This document shows positions 36,656 through 62,238 of a DNA stretch of 64,000 nucleotides, piece after piece. A model generated the notes under the pieces. That model had not been told where the DNA came from. It saw only the letters and a list, made by a program, of their open reading frames with translations, and did not search any database. Within the stretch, counting starts at the first letter, position 1. Each line of letters starts with the position of its first letter. Origin of the DNA: Eledone cirrhosa (lineage: Eukaryota); assembly GCA_964016885.1 (NCBI GenBank), contig OZ024745.1:13330001-13394000 (forward strand), written 5' to 3'. The position numbers and the translations under genes were made by a program.

Positions 36656-37358
<703 letters not shown>

Positions 37359-37846
37359 TATACAATAAAGTATGTCCAATGAATCATTTGATAAGATATA
37401 TACACCATCTCCTCTCCCAATAAGCATAATCAACCACACAAAAAAACAATTAAACCAGGCTATAAGATTAAAAGGCACCTATGAAGAAATAATAGATAAA
37501 TAAACGACAGCCATCTATTCGCGATCAACAGCTATAGAATATTTACCCAGCATTTCAATAGCACGTGGAAACGTAATCTTGGTATGTTTATATACATTTT
37601 TTCTTCTAACTTTAATTTTATACCTAATTGTGTATGGTTGACGATATTGAAATGCTGGGTAAATATTCTATAGCTGTTGATCGCGAATAGATGGCTGTCG
37701 TTTATTTATCTATTATTTCTTCATAGGTGCCTTTTAATCTTATAGCCTGGTTTAATTGTATTTTTGTGTGGTTGATTATGCTGATTGGGAGAGGAGATGG
37801 TGTATATATCTTATCAAATGATTCTATGGACATACTTTATAGTATA
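37359..37846. repeat. long near-perfect inverted repeat (~200-bp arms)
   Basis: 37359-37560 is the reverse complement of 37645-37846 with few mismatches; bounded by (TA)n. Confidence 0.95.
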
Positions 37847-37948
37847 TTGCTCTGATTATTCAATTAATTAATTCGTCATTGAGCCACATCGTGAATGGTT
37901 GCCAAAAACATATATATATATATCTATGACTTTGTATATGTAAATCTT

Positions 37949-41920: not shown

Positions 41921-42026
<106 letters not shown>

Positions 42027-42073
42027 AATGAAAGGTATAGAAATCATTGTAGCAAAAAGCCAACAGTATTCCA

Positions 42074-42160
<87 letters not shown>

Positions 42161-42294
42161 TGGAAAATGTGTGAGATCCTTGGTAGAGTTAGGTATATTT
42201 GAAAAAGAAAGGAATAGAATGACTTCACCTGTAGTGTTAAAACATTTTTGATTTAATTTTTTTTATATTATAATATTATGAGTTGGTAGATCTA

Positions 42295-42350
<56 letters not shown>

Positions 42351-42576
42351 TAATAAAAACAATGAATAAAAACAAAGAACAAGTTCCTTATATTAAAAAA
42401 TTCATCATTTTACGATCGTTTCTAGGACATATATGTGTGTTGGTATGTATATCATATAGATCTATGTAAAAATATTACAAACTATCAGAAGAAATATACA
42501 TACCTTCACATATATATGCTGTCTTCAGAAATGATGACATTTGTTTATTGAAAAAAACCAACAAAGATTTAATATA

Positions 42577-42937
42577 AGGTAGAAACATGTGCTTATGCCA
42601 TAGTTCACTAAATAGAATCAGTCTGTTAGCTGGGATTTAAAAAACCCTCTGAATGGAAAAAGGATGAGTATTGACGTAGATGGGACAATCTTTGTTTGCC
42701 AGACCAATGTGTTACCAATACACCACCCATGCTTCCTTCCATTCAATTGGAAGCTATATAACCACAGCAGATATATATATGTATATAAATAGGTAACATA
42801 TTGGTCCGGCAAACCAGAGATGTCGGTTCGTGTCCCATGTACGCCAATACTCATACTTTTTTCCATTCAGAGGAGTTTTTAAAAAAAATCCCTGATTCTA
42901 TTTAGTCAAATACGGCGTAAGCACATGTTACTACCTA
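42577..42937. repeat. inverted pair of tRNA-headed elements
   Basis: 42577-42730 vs 42790-42937 are inverted. A-box-like TGGTGTATTGG on the minus arm; B-box-like GGTTCGTGTCC at ~42825. Confidence 0.7.
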
Positions 42938-43117
42938 ATTTTCAAATTCGCTAGCCCTTTCTAAACAAAGTCGGCTATGTGTCTCCCTATTTATATACAT
43001 ATATATATACCTGCTACATACACACACGCATTAACATCCATACCTACATACCTACATACATGCATGCATTAACATCCACACCTACATACATGTAATAACA
43101 TCCATCGGTCCATACAT

Positions 43118-43935
43118 ATATGGATTGCAGCGTCTTCACAGACGATTGCCGCCACTCATTGATTCTTCGTTATCATCCCATCTGTGTCCATGACTTCGTA
43201 GATGACTTTGTAAGCCTGCTGTAGATCTGCATGGGCATGACACAGGTGACAGAAGAGAGTTGTGCTTTCCACAAGACCGGTGGTGTCACCCCGTGGGACA
43301 CAATCTTTATGTACCATCACGTGTTTTTTTAGTCCAGAACTAGTTCTACACACTTTGTTGTATATCACGCATGTGGTTCACCAGGACATTGTTGAGTGGT
43401 GTTGTGGGTGGTTATCCTTTCATGTGACTTCAGGTGATTAACATAACCAACTTTGTGAGGAGCACACGCTGACAGAAATTGCATATCCAACTACTGATGA
43501 CTTCATCAAGACTCTGAGTACAGCCCTTCCGGAGCTGATGCTTCAGTTGTTTATGTTCCAGTTGACATTCTTAAAAGTTTTGCAACTGCCCTTTATGCGC
43601 TTTCTCCACTCAGCCCTATTTAGAGCTATCTCCTAACAGTTGTCTATATCAAATGCCAGCTCTTTGAGATTGTTCTTGATGCTGTCCTTGAACCCCATTT
43701 TCGGTTTGTGTTGAGGCCTTTTTCGATGATAGAGCTCACCGTAAACAGTTGCCTCGGGATCCTGCTTTCTTTCATGCAAACGATATGTCCTGTCCAGCGC
43801 ATTTGAGAAGATGTTACTTAGGACTCAATGCTTGGTCATTCTGCTTTGATAAGGACATGGATGTCAGGAGCTCTATCTTGCTACTTGATGTTGAATATAC
43901 GTCTTAAACATTTCTGCTGAAAACTCTCAAGCAAA
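43118..43935 (-). mobile_element. RTE/BovB-like LINE 3' fragment with C2H2 zinc-finger remnants
   Basis: LLESFQQKCLRRIFNIK, RWTGHIVCMKESRIP, RPQHKPKMGFKDSIKNNLKE..NRAEWR, CRTSSGLKKHVMVH; flanked by (TACA)n. Confidence 0.85.
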
Positions 43936-44316
43936 ATACATACATGTAATAACATACATACATACATACATACATACATACATACATACATACATACATA
44001 CATACATACATACATACATACATACATAGTCTACAAATGGCTGCGATAGCTGGCACCTTCAAAATTTGCAAAACATTCTTGCGATTCAAGGGATGACAAT
44101 TTCTTTTCTTTTACAACCTTGCCACCAGGAAGGTGGCCGGTCAAAAAAAATGTACTCGAAATTAAGAGAAAGAGATAAACATACATACATACATACATAC
44201 ATACAGATTGATATAAATTATTACATAGAGGGTGTTTAAATTACAATAGAAGAATCTTATTCCTGGGTTAACAACCGACTCTCTCTCTCTTTCCCTCCCT
44301 CTTTCTCCCCCCCCCC

Positions 44317-44354
<38 letters not shown>

Positions 44355-45292
44355 GAGAAATTTAAAATATACGATCAGGAAAACGTACATATATACGACG
44401 TGTATATGTGTGCGTGCGCGTATGTGTGTGTATGTGTACGTGTCTATCTGTCAGTCTGTGCAGTGTGCGTATGTGTGTATCTGAGTCGTTCTGTGTGTGT
44501 CTATGAATGTATGTATGTATATATATGTATATGTATGGATGTGTATGTATGTATGTATGTATGTATGTATGTATGTATGTATGTATGTATGGGTTAAATG
44601 TATGTATGTATGTATGTATGTATGTATGTATGTATGTATGTATGTATGGGTTAAATGTTACAATGTATGTATGTATGTATGTATGTATGTATGGGTTAAA
44701 TGTTACAATGGCTGTGTTTTTACAATACTTTGAACACCAGCAATGGTTAGCAAGGGTTTCATATTATGGCCACCACCTCCCACTAAAAAAAAAAGGGTAA
44801 GGGGTTTCACTTATATGTCACAGCTTTTAGTAACTGATTGATCCCTTTCATTTTAACTTGTTACAAATTTTAGACTGCTCCCCACCCCGTTTTTCTCCCT
44901 TTTAATTGGTTGGTTAATTAATTTTTTTTTTTAGGAGGTGGAGGTCGTTTGTTTGTTGTAAATGAATGAAGGATCTCTCTCTCTTTGCCACCCCATCACA
45001 GCCATCTTTTTATTCAAACAGTTGCAATTCTTTCATTGTTTTCCACCGTCACGTGCCAATCCCTATCCCACCTTCCTCCCCCTGTTTTATTATGGATATT
45101 TTATTAATTCTTTGTAGGTGTGTATGAAGGTGTGTGTGTATGAAGATGGGTGTGTGGGGGAGAGAGAAAGAGAGACTGAACTGAAGGGAATCATTGTTAC
45201 TTTAACACACACTATTATATATAACATGGCTTATATATATATATATATAAATAAGTGGCTTCTACAAGACTAGAACTGTTTCATATTTTTTT

Positions 45293-45449
45293 GGGGACCA
45301 CTGCTGGGTAGTGTTCATCATACTAGTTGCAGTGGCCTGGGCTCGTCAGACGGTATGAGAGCCTAAACCTTTTTTAAAGGTTTTCGTACCGTCTGATGAG
45401 CTCAGGTTATCATAATTTGTCGAACGAGCACTATCTGGTTGTGGTCCTC
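45293..45449 (+). other. 72-bp ungapped G.U-rich hairpin module between (TA)n tracts
   Basis: Arms 45293-45364 and 45378-45449: 48 WC, 16 G.U, 4 A.C, 4 other pairs. Confidence 0.85.
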
Positions 45450-45568
45450 AGCGAAATGTGTATCACAGAGATATAAAGAAACCTAAATCAACGACATATG
45501 GCCTCCGATCTATTTAATGCTATATATATATATAAAATAAAATTTAAAAAACTACATGGCTGAATACA

Positions 45569-45830
45569 ATAAATGTAGTCTGAGTTTTTCGAGTATTAAT
45601 AGTGGCATTCGATTCGTTTGCAATTATGCAAACAAGCCTCATTTTTAAAGCCATTTTTGAGCTGTACTGATGAAGGGTGATACCCAGAAACATTAGTGTC
45701 TGCAGTTCTGTTTACATGCCAACACAAGAGCAAGAATGAAGGGTTCATTCTACTGACATGGCTTTAAAAATGAGGCTTGTGCAATCGAGTCGAGTGTTGT
45801 TAGTGTTCGAGGGACTCAGATTACATTTAT
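45569..45830 (+). other. G.U-rich hairpin module enclosing a hammerhead
   Basis: Arms 45569-45654 and 45758-45830; inner 23 bp perfect, outer stem has 11 G.U and 0 A.C. Confidence 0.85.
45659..45708 (+). ncRNA. type I hammerhead ribozyme
   Basis: Stem I GAGCTGTA/TGCAGTTC, CTGATGA, stem II GGGT-gat-ACCC, GAAA, stem III ACAT-ta-GTGT, GUC cleavage triplet ending at 45700. Confidence 0.8.
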
Positions 45831-46346
45831 ATATATATATATTATTATTTACACACACCCTCTACCAATGAATATTTGGCATTGTGTCTCGTTAAAAGGA
45901 ATTTATATTTATTAACTTAATGAAAGCAATAACGATGATTATTATATTGTTAGTATTATGAAATTTTTCTAAATAAAATTTCCGGATCAGCTAAGGTAGA
46001 ATTCATTCATTGCCAACTGGCTGGTGCAAATTGAAAATGTTGAGTTATCTGCCCTTGATATTTTTGTGTCGGTGGAGGAATGGCTCGTAAAGAATGGGTT
46101 AACAGGTCAGCCATTTCTTCTTTTTTCTTCTTCTTACTTAGCCAGAGTAATTTGTTACTTATATATGTGTAATATTGATGTAAATAGATTTATATTGATT
46201 TAATTAAGTAGCTGTCATTGGAGTCAACTCTATATATCGCTGTGAACTGTAGATTGAATATAATATATAGTGGGTCAAGTATGAAATTTGTAGAAAAAAA
46301 AACATTTCCTCAGGTTTCATACTTCACGAACCAATATATATATATA

Positions 46347-46410
<64 letters not shown>

Positions 46411-46671
46411 TTGTATGTATATATATATATATATTGTGTGTATATATATATGTATATATATTGTATGTATATATGTATATATATATTGTATGTATATATA
46501 TGTATATATATTGTATGTATATATATATATATATATTGTATGTATATGTATATGTATATATATATTGTATGTATATATATATATATATATATATTGTATG
46601 TATATATATATATATGGTATGTATATATATATATATATATTGTATGTATATATATATGTATGTATATATAT

Positions 46672-46826
46672 AAGGTGGGCGAAGACAACTGAGAAACGAA
46701 CGAAACATGGGACAGTCTCTTCTCGTCAGTTGACCTCTAGAGGTAATGCACCGAAATCAGGACCTCCAGAGGTCGACTGATGGGGGGGGACTGTCCTCTG
46801 TTTCGTCCGTCTTAGCCCCACCTTTT
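46672..46826 (+). other. G.U-rich hairpin module after TA-rich microsatellite
   Basis: Core arms 46697-46744 and 46762-46809: 7 G.U, 2 A.C, 1 other; outer AAGGTGGG/CCCACCTT. Confidence 0.85.
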
Positions 46827-46899
46827 TAAAAATTAATTTTATAGATCTTAACCGCGTGGGACATTCTTTCACACACACACACACACATATATATATATA

Positions 46900-47256
46900 G
46901 TTATTCTTTTACTGTGGCCTTGCTGGAGCAGTGCCTTCTTGGATTTAGCTGAACACATAGACCCCCCCCCCCTACTTATTTTGTCAATCTCTTTATGGCG
47001 AACTGCTAAGTTATAGGACATAAACAGTAAATGTAAACACAGACGTTGACGCACATGTAGCATCATGTACGTGTGTTGTGTGGATGTATATAAACATAAA
47101 CAGCAGGTTTTCATACAGTGTCTGTCTACCAATTTACCCTTACAAGCCTTTGGTCTACCGGAAGCCGAAGTAAGAGACACTGGCCCTTGTGCCATGCAGT
47201 GACACAGTGGGAGTGAACCTGGTTGCAAAATGAATTTCTTAACAACACATCCATGC
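46900..47256 (-). mobile_element. octopus-type tRNA-derived SINE
   Basis: Minus strand GGATGTGTTGTTAAGAA..GGTTCACTCCCACTG..GGCACAAGGGCCAGTGTCTC..ACCAAAGGCTTGTAAGGGTAAATTGGTAGAC; a related fragment lies at ~53650-53790. Confidence 0.7.
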
Positions 47257-47297
47257 TTATATTTATACACATGTGTGTGTATAAATATATATATATA

Positions 47298-47836
47298 CGA
47301 CTAAACTGGCAACCCCACCAAGGTTTCTTGGTGAGGAGGGTGACTTTGGACATCCTGCAGGACTAAAAACAAAACCTGTCAAAGGGCAAAGGAGCTCTTA
47401 AAAGTCAATGGCCATCCAAAATCACCGGGAGAGATGACCCCTTAGCCTTTGTCAAGGCAGAATTCTAGGAGAAGGAAAACTCTGATATAACACCTGCAAC
47501 CCTGATGGTATCCAATGATGTTGACTTGTTCTTCTTTTTGGTAAATATCATCTTGGTTAAGAGAGTGGGACTGGCTTTGTGCAGTGCCTTTGCTCACTAT
47601 AAAAGCTTCACGGCACAGGCATTGCTTTGTATCTGGAGATCTCTCTGCACTTGTCCTCACATGGTACCATGGGCCCAGCACTATGTGTCAATAATTGTCA
47701 CAGGTGTAGTGTTTGTACCAGAGTTTTCAAGTCGCTGGCTGGACTAAAAGTCACACTCGTTCAGCGCTTCGGTAGGGGTTCTCCTACATGGATATAAAGT
47801 AGTGGCCGTACTCGAAAACGAGTTGGCAGCCACCAT
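47298..47836 (+). mobile_element. non-autonomous RTE derivative, copy 1 (5'-truncated)
   Basis: Near-identical to 48586-49125; followed by a long (TATG)-type tail. Confidence 0.85.
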
Positions 47837-47951
47837 ATGTATGTATATGTGTATATGTATGTATATGTATATGTGTATGTATGTGTATGTATATGTGTAT
47901 GTATGTGTATGTGTATGTATGTATATATGTGTATATGTATGTATGTATATG

Positions 47952-47983
<32 letters not shown>

Positions 47984-48231
47984 TGTGTATGTATGTATGT
48001 ATGTGTATATGTATGTATGTATATATGTATATGTATATATATGTATGTATGTGTATGTGTATGTATGTGTATGTGTGTGTATATGTATGTATGTATGTAT
48101 ATATGTATGTATGTATATGTATATGTATGTGTGTATGTATGTATATATGTATGTATGTATGTATATATGTATGTATGTGTATATGTATGTATGTGTATAT
48201 GTATGTGTATGTATATGTATATATATATGCT

Positions 48232-48495
48232 GCTTTGTGCAGTGCCTTTGCTCACTATAAAAGCTTCACAGCACAGGCATTGCTTTATATCTGGAGATCT
48301 CTCTGCACTGGTCGTCACATGGTACCATGGGCCCAGCACTATGTGTCAATAATTGTCACAAGTGTAGTGTTTGTACCAGAGTTTTCAAGTCGCTGGCTGG
48401 ACTAAAAAGTCACATTCGTTCAGCGCATTGGTAGGGGTTCTCCTACATGGATATAAAGTAGTGGCCGTACTCGAAAACGAGTTGGCAGCCACCAT
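48232..48495 (+). mobile_element. non-autonomous RTE derivative, copy 2 (3' half)
   Basis: Same 3' end ..GAGTTGGCAGCCACCAT(GTAT)n; encodes remnant CSVCTRVFKSLAGLKSHIRS (RTE C2H2 finger). Confidence 0.85.
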
Positions 48496-48519
48496 GTATG
48501 TATGTATGTATATATGTCA

Positions 48520-48597
48520 GGTCACCACTTGGTGCTACTGGTAACATGTATCCCAGTACAACCTGTCTGATGGTCGGGTCGTTGGCGACTAAACTGG
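48520..48597 (+). ncRNA. candidate HDV-like ribozyme
   Basis: P1 GGTCA/TGGTC, P2 CCAGT/ACTGG, P3 ACA/TGA (one mismatch), L3 ACCTGTC, P1.1 CC/GG, P4 TCG-ttgg-CGA, J4/2 CTAA. Confidence 0.6.
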
Positions 48598-49125
48598 CAA
48601 CCCCACTAAGGTTTCTTGGTGAGGAGGGTGACTTTGGACATCCTGCAGGACTAAAAACAAAACCTGTCAAAGGGCAAAGGAGCTCTTAAGAGTCAATGGC
48701 CATCCAAAATCACCGGGAGAGATGACCCCTTAGCCTTTGTCAAGGCAGAATTCTAGGAGAAGGAAAACTCTGATATAACACCTGCAACCCTGATGGTATC
48801 CAATCATGTTGACTTGTTCTTCTTTTTGGTAAATATCATCTTGGTTAAGAGAGTGGGACTGGCTTTGTGCAGTGCCTTTGCTCACTATAAAAGCTTCACG
48901 GCACAGGCATTGCTTTGTATCTGGAGATCTCTCTGCACTTGTCATTACATGGTACCATGGGCCCAGCACTATGTGTCAATAATTGTCACAAGTGTAGTGT
49001 TTGTACCAGAGTTTTCAAGTTGCTGGCTGGACTAAAAAGTCACACTCGTTCAGCGTATCGGTAGGGGTTCTCCTACATGGTTATAAAGTAGTGGCCGTAC
49101 TCGAAAACGAGTTGGCAGCCACCAT
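48520..49125 (+). mobile_element. non-autonomous RTE derivative, copy 3 (longest, ~606 bp)
   Basis: RTE-like 5' region (CTAGGAGAAGGAAAACTCTG) joined to the C2H2-encoding 3' end and a (TATG)n tail. Confidence 0.8.
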
Positions 49126-49629
49126 GTATGTATGTATGCATGTATGCATGTATGTATGTATATGTATGTACGTACGTACGTACATACATGTGCATGTATG
49201 TATGTATATGTATGTACGTACGTACGTACATATGTATATATGTATGTATATATGTATGTATGTATATATATGTATATGTATGTATGTATGTCAGTCTGTG
49301 AAGTTGTTTAAGTAAATACAGTGAAAGACCAACCTAAAGTAGCAGATATCCAACTAAATATCCAATTAAAACGTCTTCAGACATTAACTAATCTCTCCTA
49401 CGTCTCGTGTACTCTGCACGTGACTGTTCTCTTTATTAATTTAAGCTCAGCACAAATTCCACCGGAAAATATCTTAGATATCTGCTGCAAAAAAAAAAAA
49501 TTGAATTGTTCTTATGATTTCCTTTCCATTAACTGTTAATCACTATCACTCTTCAAACTCTTATGGAATTAGAATATGTTTCTTCTTTTACTAATACATA
49601 ACTTTCTATATAATATACTATAAAATACT

Positions 49630-58238: not shown

Positions 58239-58765
58239 ATATAGAATAAGGAAAAGCGAAGCAGTTTCAGATGTTCAAGTCATTTAATAATAATTGTTTC
58301 TACTTTCGGCACAAGGCCAGCAATTACCCAATGTGTTTCTGGTACTTTATTTTAACGACCCCGTAAGGATGAAAGGCAAAGTTAACCTCGGCGGGATAAT
58401 AATAATGCTGTGATATATATTTCAATGGCGACAGTGGCCACACTGTTCCGTGCGCCAGTGCCGCCACATCGTCAGACAGCTTGTTACATAATAAGGTTAT
58501 GTTTCCGAGGCAATCCAAATTGAATCGACATGGGAACGGACGAAGTGTGTGCTTTCGGGTTCTTCATCCGTTCCCTTGTCCCATGTCGATTCAATTTGGA
58601 TTGCCTCGGAAACATAACCTTATTATGTAACAAGCTGTCTGGCGATGTCGTGGCACTGGCGCACGGAACAGTGTGGCCACTGTCGCCATTAAAATATATA
58701 TCACAGCATTATTATTAAAAGACTTGAACATCTGAAACTACTTCGGTTTTCCTTATTTTATATAT
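58239..58765. repeat. near-perfect fold-back element interrupted by a SINE
   Basis: 58239-58294 plus 58398-58545 form the reverse complement of ~58561-58765; loop ~16 nt. Confidence 0.93.
58295..58397 (-). mobile_element. truncated SINE insertion with AATAATAAT target duplication
   Basis: Same family as 24438; AATAATAAT at 58286-58294 and 58398-58406. Confidence 0.8.
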
Positions 58766-59007: not shown

Positions 59008-59129
59008 CGAGATAGAAACGTATAAGACAAACATACCTTATTTGTAAACATAAAGATGTATTGTCATCGTAAGTTAGATATTAAAGAACAGTTTTAAATG
59101 ACACAAGTACTGCATGGCTGCGTTGGTCT

Positions 59130-62100
59130 CAGTTATCCAATGTACTGGGGGTGTATGTCAATTTACAGTTGACAGTAATCACAGTTATCCAATGTCCTGG
59201 TGGTGTATGTCAATGTACAGTTGACAGTAGTCACAGTTATCCAATTTCCTGGTGGTGTATGTCAATGTATAGTTGACAGTAGTCACAGTTGTCCAATGTA
59301 CTGGTGGTGTATGTCAATGTATAGTTGACAGTAGTCACAGTTATCCAATGTCCTGGTGGTGTATGTCAATGTATAGTTGACAGTAGTCACAGTTATCCAA
59401 TGTACTGGTGGTGTATGTCAATGTATAGTTGACAGTAGTTACAGTTATCCAATGTACTGGTGGTGTATGTCAATGTATAGTTGACAGTAGTTACAGTTAT
59501 CCAATGTCCTGGTGGTGTATGTCAATGTATAGTTGACAGTAGTCACAGTTATCCAATGTACTGGTGGTGTATGTCAATGTATAGTTGACAGTAGTCACAG
59601 TTATCCAATGTACTGGTGGTGTATGTCAATGTACAGTTGACAGTACTCACAGTTATCCAATGTACTGGTGGTGTATGTCAATGTATAGTTGACAGTAGTC
59701 ACAGTTATCAAATGTCCTGGTGGTGTATGTCAATGTACAGTTGACAGTAGTCACAGTTATCCAATGTACTGGTGGTGTATGTCAATGTATAGTTGACAGT
59801 AGTCACAGTTATCCAATGTACTGGTGGTGTATGTCAATGTATAGTTGACAGTAGTTATAGTTATCCAATGGACTGGTGGTGTATGTCAATGTACAGTTGA
59901 CAGTAGTCACAGTTATCCAATGTACTGGTGGTGTATGTCAATGTACAGTTGACAGTAGTCACAGTTATCCAATGTACTGGTGGTGTATGTCAATGTATAG
60001 TTGACAGTGGTCACAGTTATCCAATGTACTGGTGGTGTATGTCAATGTACAGTTGACAGTAGTCACAGTTATCCAATGTACTGGTGGTGTATGTCAATGT
60101 ATAGTTGACAGTGGTCACAGTTATCCAATGTACTGGTGGTGTATGTCAATGTATAGTTGACAGTAGTCACAGTTATCCAATGTACTGGTGGTGTATGTCA
60201 ATGTATAGTTGACAGTGGTCACAGTTATCCAATGTACTGGTGGTGTATGTCAATGTATAGTTGACAGTAGTCACAGTTATCCAATGTACTGGTGGTGTAT
60301 GTCAATGTATAGTTGACAGTGGTCACAGTTATCCAATGTACTGGTGGTGTATGTCAATGTATAGTTGACAGTGGTCACAGTTATCCAATGTACTGGTGGT
60401 GTATGTCAATGTATAGTTGACAGTAGTCACAGTTATCCAATGTACTGGTGGTGTATGTCAATGTATAGTTGACAGTGGTCACAGTTATCCAATGTACTGG
60501 TGGTGTATGTCAATGTATAGTTGACAGTAGTCACAGTTATCCAATGTACTGGTGGTGTATGTCAATGTATAGTTGCCAGTAGTCACAGTTATACAATGTA
60601 CTGGCGATGTATGTCAATGTACAGTTGACAGTAGTCACAGTTATCCAATGTACTGGTGGTGTATGTCAATGTACAGTTGACAGTAGTCACAGTTATCCAA
60701 TGTACTGGTGGTGTATGTCAATGTATAGTTGACAGTAGTCACAGTTATACAATGTACTGGCGATGTATGTCAATGTACAGTTGACAGTAGTCACAGTTAT
60801 CCAATGTACTGGTGGTGTATGTCAATTTATAGTTGACAGTAGTCACAGTTATCCAATGTACTGGTGGTGTATGTCAATGTATAGTTGACAGTGGTCACAG
60901 TTATCCAATGTACTGGTGGTGTATGTCAATGTATAGTTGACAGTAGTCACAGTTATCCAATGTACTGGTGGTGTATGTCAATGTATAGTTGACAGTGGTC
61001 ACAGTTATCCAATGTACTGGTGGTGTATGTCAATGTATAGTTGACAGTAGTCACAGTTATCCAATGTACTGGTGGTGTATATCAATATACAGTTGACAGT
61101 AGTCACAGTTATCCAATGTACTGGTGGTGTATGTCAATGTATAGTTGACAGTAGTCACAGTTATACAATGTACTGGCGATGTGTGTCAATGTACAGTTGA
61201 CAGTAGTCACAGTTATCCAATGTGCTGGTGGTGTATGTCAATGTATAGTTGACAGTGGTCACAGTTATCCAATGTACTGGTGGTGTATGTCAATGTATAG
61301 TTGACAGTGGTCACAGTTATCCAATGTACTGGTGGTGTATGTCAATGTATAGTTGACAGTAGTCACAGTTATCCAATGTACTGGTGGTGTATGTCAATGT
61401 ATAGTTGACAGTAGTCACAGTTATCCAATGTACTGGTGGTGTATGTCAATGTATAGTTGACAGTAGTCACAGTTATACAATGTACTGGCGATGTATGTCA
61501 ATGTACAGTTGACAGTAGTCACAGTTATCCAATGTACTGGTGGTGTATGTCAATGTATAGTTGACAGTAGTCACAGTTATACAATGTACTGGCGATGTAT
61601 GTCAATGTATAGTTGACAGTAGTCACAGTTATCCAATGTACTGGTGGTGTATGTCAATGTACAGTTGACAGTAGTCACAGTTATACAATGTACTGGCGAT
61701 GTATGTCAATGTATAGTTGACAGTAGTCACAGTTATACAATGTACTGGTGGTGTATGTCAATGTACAGTTGACAGTAGTCACAGTTATCCAATGTACTGG
61801 TGGTGTATGTCAATGTACAGTTGACAGTAGTCACAGTTATCCAATGTACTGGTGCTGTATGTCAATGTACAGTTGACAGTAGTCACAGTTATCCAATGTA
61901 CTGGTGGTGTATGTCAATGTATAGTTGACAGTAGTCACAGTTATCCAATGTACTGGTGGTGTATGTCAATGTACAGTTGACAGTGGTCACAGTTATCCAA
62001 TGTACTGGTGGTGTATGTCAATGTATAGTTGACAGTAGTCACAGTTATCCAATGTACTGGTGGTGTATGTCAATGTATAGTTGACAGTAGTCACAGTTAT

Positions 62101-62238
62101 CCAATGTACTGGTGGTGTATGTCAATGTACAGTTGACAGTAGTCACAGTTATCCAATGTACTGGTGGTGTATGTCAATGTATAGTTGACAGTAGTCACAG
62201 TTATTCAATGTGCTGGCGATGTGTGTCCGTGTATAGTT
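59130..62238. repeat. 52-bp tandem satellite, ~60 monomers
   Basis: CACAGTTATCCAATGTACTGGTGGTGTATGTCAATGTA(T/C)AGTTGACAGT(A/G)GT; period 52 (59181, 59233). Confidence 0.99.

Follow-up and report, generated by a model that had tools for sequence, protein, structure and literature searches.

Strand-specific A>G changes in a duplicated region from behind LIX1 in Eledone cirrhosa point to a recent retrocopy of one hyper-edited RNA

That edited RNA can be reverse-transcribed into DNA is already known. In L1-induced human cells, 3 of 235 pseudogene insertions are described as carrying clustered substitutions that are limited to inverted Alus of the 3′ UTR (PMC11702581), and edited RNA of avian retroviruses has likewise been fixed by reverse transcription (as summarised in PMC12925331). 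The 3.8-kb insert described here, in the genome of the octopod Eledone cirrhosa, resembles the L1-driven pseudogenes in that editing limited to the inverted repeats of a host mRNA 3′ UTR would have been fixed by retrotransposition; unlike the cultured-cell case, it is a natural insert in an invertebrate assembly, its hairpins are not built of Alus, and it ends at the terminus of an embedded element on a microsatellite rather than in poly(A), the machinery being presumably of RTE type. With the avian retrovirus case it shares an inverted repeat in RNA and heavy A>G change that would have been carried through reverse transcription, but there the RNA is viral, the enzyme is the virus's own and nearly 50% of A are changed, whereas our insert comes from a host-gene region and has 19% of its paired A changed. 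As in the APOBEC3 editing of retroelements (PMC2873906), the footprint of an enzyme is read from genomic retro-copies as clusters of a single mismatch type; APOBEC3, however, is described there as producing G>A through deamination of cDNA without limitation to stems, whereas the A>G changes of the insert are limited to predicted dsRNA. The literature that we searched, with partial coverage, yielded no natural germline retrocopy of an ADAR-edited host gene and no cephalopod case. What is new here is a natural host-gene case from an invertebrate, with the unedited donor in the same assembly and a junction at an element end.

The window that we analysed comprises 64,000 nucleotides (assembly GCA_964016885.1, contig OZ024745.1, positions 13,330,001–13,394,000, forward strand; coordinates below are those of the window unless another contig is named). 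An initial annotation had drawn attention to three apparently unrelated hairpins, H1 to H3, whose arm mismatches totalled 34 G.U against 6 A.C by hand count. This excess is borne out by a strand-neutral alignment of arm against arm (equal penalty for G.T and A.C), which gives G.U:A.C ratios of 18:4 for H1 (arms 45285–45364 and 45378–45457), 11:1 for H2 (45564–45654 and 45758–45834) and 7:3 for H3 (46694–46744 and 46762–46812), or 36:8 when pooled (binomial p = 2.5e-5). The repeat at 42577, judged by eye to be unbiased, is so by alignment as well (4:5), and three further inverted repeats of the window give 3:1, 2:2 and 6:10. Two near-perfect fold-backs (37358–37847 and 58397–58717; arms of 203 and 139 nt, 97–98% identity, short spacers) are free of G.U bias. 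The hairpins belong to three different dispersed families, with at least 18 (H1), 87 (H2) and 61 (H3) matches in searches of the animal's own genome: H1 (45285–45457, + strand) joins an inverted fragment to a forward copy of its family, H2 (45564–45834, +) joins an inverted 3′ fragment to a 5′-truncated forward copy, and H3 (46694–46812, +) belongs to a third repeat family.

The feature nevertheless exceeds its original description, since all three hairpins lie inside one duplicated segment of 3.8 kb. The three family searches share a match on contig C22 in which the order of the hairpins is preserved; megablast extends this match from window position 44693 to approximately 48500 (against G000:C22:10379372-10383268), and together with global alignment it defines window 44693–48495 (+) as a copy of G000:C22:10379372-10383249 on the same strand. 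The insert is collinear with this donor and holds no coding sequence, and its unique 5′ part occurs in exactly two copies in the assembly, one in the window and one on C22. Without masking, the alignment of window and donor contains 51 A>G, 5 G>A and 3 transversions, all of the non-A>G differences being situated within microsatellites at points of alignment slippage. When the microsatellite tracts are masked before counting (46334–46672, 47836–48229 and 48496–48515, leaving 3,069 columns), 31 substitutions remain, and every one of them has A in the donor and G in the window. Divergence other than by editing is therefore below 0.1% (95% bound), from which we conclude that the copy is very young; the window G is the derived state, because the family consensuses carry the donor base (A) at the changed sites. 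Once polarised in this manner, as the initial annotation had proposed in order to separate A>G from C>T, the substitutions are A>G on one strand in every case, which supports its suggestion that the hairpins had been edited and then reverse-transcribed.

Comparison with the donor also shows that the G.U excess does not belong to the hairpin families as such. The donor hairpins give G.U:A.C ratios of 8:5, 1:1 and 2:3 (11:9 in sum, unbiased), and other copies of the three families are without A>G excess (25 versus 21 in 15 copies, 58 versus 60 in 51 and 5 versus 11 in 25). Between donor and window, 25 A-U pairs have become G.U and one A.C has become G-C. The earlier proposition that every G.U pair could be read as an A-to-G change consequently stands for 25 of the 36 pairs and fails for the 11 that pre-exist in the donor copy; of four changes proposed at 46781–46790, where the donor reads GAGAAGGG (46781–46788), three are new and the fourth is not.

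The distribution of the 31 changes follows predicted RNA structure. H1, H2 and H3 carry 11, 12 and 5 of them respectively (28 of 31), on both arms, such that 28 of 188 adenosines are changed within these hairpins as opposed to 3 of 716 outside (p = 4e-17). Two of the three outliers (46313 and 46314) fall in a fourth hairpin that the initial annotation had not listed (H4, 46258–46347, +), and the last, at 45157, is isolated in a weak imperfect stem (44976–45175, +, formed by 44976–45020 with 45131–45175); counting H4 with the other hairpins gives 30 of 222 changed adenosines versus 1 of 682 elsewhere. Within H1 to H3, change is concentrated in paired positions (25 of 130, or 19%, versus 3 of 60 unpaired; p = 0.009), and the local pairing probability computed for the donor has a median of 0.90 at edited A and 0.64 at other A (p = 8e-13). 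The ADAR motif is described as depleted of G on the 5′ side of the site and enriched for G on the 3′ side (PMC4365171), and the neighbour preference observed here is ADAR-like in part: A or T on the 5′ side accompanies editing more often than G or C (23 of 106 versus 5 of 82, p = 0.003, for one of two groupings tried), but the test of 5′ G alone gives p = 0.14 (3 of 43 edited versus 25 of 147), and G on the 3′ side is not enriched in this small sample (6 of 40 edited with 3′ G, versus 28 of 190 overall). Adenosine-deaminase (A_deamin) domains are encoded at four places in the genome, and in coleoids repeats of 3′ UTRs are reported to be edited in all tissues (PMC9068888).

Counted from the stop codon of a spliced gene on the + strand, the donor segment spans 1.25 to 5.1 kb downstream, on the same strand as the gene. 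This gene is LIX1, as identified by Pfam PF14954 on three exons (the Pfam search covered 50 of the 152 ORFs of the donor region) and by a last exon that is 98% identical to Octopus bimaculoides LIX1-like. Because the LIX1 exons lie on the + strand, the edits are on the sense strand of LIX1, and the entire A>G footprint, clustered in predicted dsRNA on both arms, is confined to it. In the left arms of H1 and H2, which are inverted, the changes appear as T>C when read in the sense of the element, hence the edited strand is that of LIX1 and not that of the elements. The hairpins would not have been mobilised one by one as small RNAs, as had been supposed; carried along in a single longer RNA of the host gene, they were most likely edited jointly. 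The donor region would form part of a 5-kb 3′ UTR or of a read-through RNA (AATAAA hexamers occur three times inside the donor segment and once 47 nt past its end), and as the segment lies entirely behind the last coding exon there is no intron for a retrocopy to lose. Several copies of a TTAA-flanked element with short terminal inverted repeats, which we take to be piggyBac-like, are present in and behind LIX1, and the insert starts with the last bases of one of them. C22 also holds a tract of approximately 13 kb, probably a tandem repeat, in which each of the three + frames stays free of stops over long distances (up to 1,781 codons); Pfam gave no match above cut-off in the one frame scanned.

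Both ends of the insert show features that are informative as to its mode of arrival. On the right, the insert stops exactly where a fragment of a 610-bp element (48232–48495, +, 96%) has its 3′ terminus, the putative priming site, and there the (AT)n tail of the donor is exchanged for (GTAT)n; a second, 5′-truncated copy of the element lies further inside (47298–47836, +, 98% identical to the copy at 48516), and a full-length, young, non-autonomous copy sits directly 3′ of the insert (48516–49125, +). Members of this very young and abundant family (40 of 40 scored candidates 99–100% identical, out of 2,419 DNA candidates) occupy (TA)n or (GTAT)n tracts, often the family's own tails, and in most of 29 other copies viewed the tail follows the microsatellite type of the target. 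The 3′ junction of the insert is therefore an ordinary junction of the 610-bp family, as would be expected if the family's reverse transcriptase had primed on the embedded end. A poly(A) tail is absent, the end lying 47 nt before an AATAAA; the insert thus behaves like a retrocopy but is no classical retrocopy of L1 type. At the opposite end, the upstream inverted-repeat element has a terminal stem, in the 3′ arm of which the insert starts; the insert is preceded by a stutter (44591–44692, +) of 9-nt and 17-nt copies of the insert 5′ end set between (GTAT)n, all of which begin at one base and which are missing from the donor; our guess is that the enzyme stalled and jumped template repeatedly. 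Direct repeats of 31 nt (44507–44537 and 49252–49282, both +) flank insert and element together, a possible but weak candidate for a target-site duplication as the repeat is itself microsatellite. Over its 610 nt, the element at 48516–49125 shows 2 private differences and so is probably older than the insert, though the two may also stem from a single template-jump event.

From the anatomy of RTE elements, we take the 610-bp element to be RTE-derived. It encodes a peptide resembling a C2H2 zinc finger (E 0.003, below the Pfam cut-off), which has 44,635 candidates in the genome; a search for an autonomous partner found none, the best 150 genome matches being short-framed (57–66 aa among the matches listed). 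Elsewhere in the window, between (CATA)n tracts, 43122–43935 (−) is a broken fragment resembling a LINE C-terminus, presumably RTE-like, three peptides of which had no Pfam match. An RTE LINE is described as active in octopuses (PMC9115989).

We consider, with a probability of roughly 0.83, that the insert is a very recent, 5′-truncated retrocopy of one ADAR-hyper-edited RNA from the LIX1 3′ region, inserted on contig C5. Downstream of the LIX1 stop codon, the donor has received three insertions of repeats with inverted arms and holds the 610-bp element as two fragments. Transcription of these repeats, whether within an extended 3′ UTR or by read-through, would have produced an RNA whose inverted arms folded into dsRNA; judging from the pattern of change, ADAR may have deaminated approximately one in five paired adenosines of a single such molecule. 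The reverse transcriptase of the 610-bp element, probably of RTE type, would then have recognised the element 3′ end within the LIX1 RNA and used a (GTAT)n tract of C5 for priming; over the next 3.8 kb inosine would have been read as G, until copying ceased in the terminal stem of the upstream inverted-repeat element with stutter at the 5′ junction. In the assembly the edits are now fixed as G in DNA, and the insert is most likely a neutral fossil.

The G alleles and the junctions are known here from the assembly alone, and so we weighed whether they might be an artefact, in which polishing with RNA reads overwrote an unedited duplicate or a chimeric insert was built. Words sampled in the best sequencing runs have a share of 0.83, where the unedited donor alone predicts 0.80 (P = 0.23); this difference does not demonstrate the edited copy in reads and is compatible with reads that hold the unedited copy only. 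The complete lack of non-A>G substitutions in the 3,069 columns would also suit two copies that are otherwise the same haplotype. Against this, the insert lies inside a contig of 135 Mb with a single-copy right flank, and it has a stutter that the donor lacks, an exact end at an element terminus, an exchanged tail and microsatellite lengths of its own (deletions of 52 nt and 20 nt relative to the donor). The right flank has a single match in the assembly, with no empty-site haplotig. Polishing would presumably not create such junction features and would have to change only one of two identical copies, such that we regard an artefact as improbable.

A DNA-level route, in which duplication or RNA-templated break repair was followed by deamination of DNA adenines in fold-backs or R-loops, has a similarly small chance of being correct. 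ADARs are reported to act in vitro on DNA:RNA hybrids, editing their DNA strand (PMC12925331), and the insert has neither a poly(A) tail nor a clean target-site duplication. However, changes that affect one strand and both arms, in intramolecular stems only, fit dsRNA rather than an R-loop, and the 3′ boundary coincides with an element terminus in the way of ordinary insertions of that family.

The initial annotation had offered a further reading, namely that the hairpins are RNAs of retrozyme or viroid type whose G.U pairs are maintained by selection on a rod-like fold. We observe in the loop of H2 a type-I hammerhead motif (45659–45708, +; core 45667–45673, predicted cleavage after 45700; read from the sequence) and in H1 a hammerhead-like one; the core pattern recurs at 20 of 28 H2-family and 8 of 14 H1-family loci, and only 1 of 25 H3-family copies has the GAAA half of a hammerhead. 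H1 and H2 also fold far more stably on the + strand than on the − strand (−101 versus −59 and −120 versus −87 kcal/mol). Against selection on the fold stand the unbiased donor hairpins and the lack of A>G excess in family copies; moreover, the new G.U pairs replace A-U and thereby weaken H2 and H3, and the hammerhead units occur as single inverted-plus-direct fragments, with no tandem array found. We therefore reject this reading of the G.U bias and return to the retrocopy of an edited RNA, in which the hammerheads are passengers: the H2-loop motif has no edits and the insert continues through it. The motifs (45659–45708 and 45387–45470) lie in sense orientation behind LIX1 on the donor, and the copied RNA was uncut at them, as is expected of weak monomeric minimal hammerheads (PMC4209133). 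A search of 42000–49000 against Rfam at E ≤ 5 returned 47 weak matches, all below the gathering score and none of them a hammerhead.

The H1 and H2 families themselves are likely of Penelope-like origin. Penelope-like elements are described as having hammerheads in their pLTRs and direct-plus-inverted arrangements (PMC4209133, PMC3846280); like these and the non-LTR retrozymes (PMC4209133, PMC3846280, 10.64898/2026.07.22.740005), both families consist of fragments in direct-plus-inverted arrangement whose cores resemble type-I hammerheads in which helix III is minimal, but unlike them they show neither a tandem array nor a link to a PLE ORF in our searches. Among 76 loci of approximately 3 kb, comprising short and truncated copies, no linked GIY-YIG ORF was found, the one weak match having E 0.058. 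Such an origin accounts for the existence of the hairpins, not for their G.U bias.

Neutral decay of CpG type or strand composition as the source of the bias is excluded by the substitution spectrum, in which 0 of 31 changes are C>T or G>A with microsatellites masked, even though paired microsatellites can mimic the bias (9 of 10 biased background hairpins). That mimicry emerged from two background scans. The first (117 other hairpins, G.U:A.C 428:399, 0 of 44 biased) was insensitive and missed H2 and H3 of the window; the second (134 sources, 650 kb, 191 other hairpins) recovered H1 and H3, missed H2 and gave a pooled ratio of 914:744 that is no clean null. It flagged 10 of 69 hairpins with at least 8 transitions, including the 9 microsatellite artefacts. 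Where a (TA)n tract pairs with one of (TG)n or of (GTAT)n, a strong spurious bias towards G.U or A.C results, and genome-wide screens consequently need microsatellite masking.

Should the reading of the insert as an edited retrocopy be confirmed by reads, it would provide an example that is natural, concerns a host gene and comes from the animals most noted for editing. The heritability of A-to-I edits is usually argued indirectly, and a retrocopy is a route by which RNA edits would be made permanent; with edited copy and unedited donor in one assembly, each site shows for itself the direction of change, the strand and the dependence on structure. A genome-wide search for duplicates that are nearly identical but for A>G on one strand of their stems offers a simple way to measure the frequency of such write-back, and edited retrocopies may pass for editing sites or SNPs in read mapping. 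That octopod retrotransposon enzymes, priming on element ends in 3′ UTRs, write ADAR edits into the germline on a genome-wide scale is a tentative extension, which we think rather unlikely; if true, the resulting "fossil editome" would record, with dates, the germline editing of single molecules and, in the lineage that edits most heavily, form a true RNA-to-DNA source of A>G changes.

The tenth hairpin flagged by the second background scan, which comes from an arbitrary 200-kb sample, supplied one lead in this direction. At G000:C4:50008001-50009120 lies a Penelope-type 3′ end with a GIY-YIG ORF fragment, the inverted arm of which (50008001–50008162) differs from the family consensus by 9 A>G, 1 T>C, 1 G>A, 2 C>T and 3 transversions; the same arm region has 0–2 A>G in 14 family copies (the best matches to the query). 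From its sequence it is possibly a second fossil-edited insertion, and we treat it as a lead only: its donor was not found, and diverged copies of the family include further outliers in both directions.

The window also contains two repeat arrays: a 47-bp satellite at 1–23455 (approximately 500 copies, approximately 95% match) and, at 59126–62238, 60 copies of a 52-bp unit.
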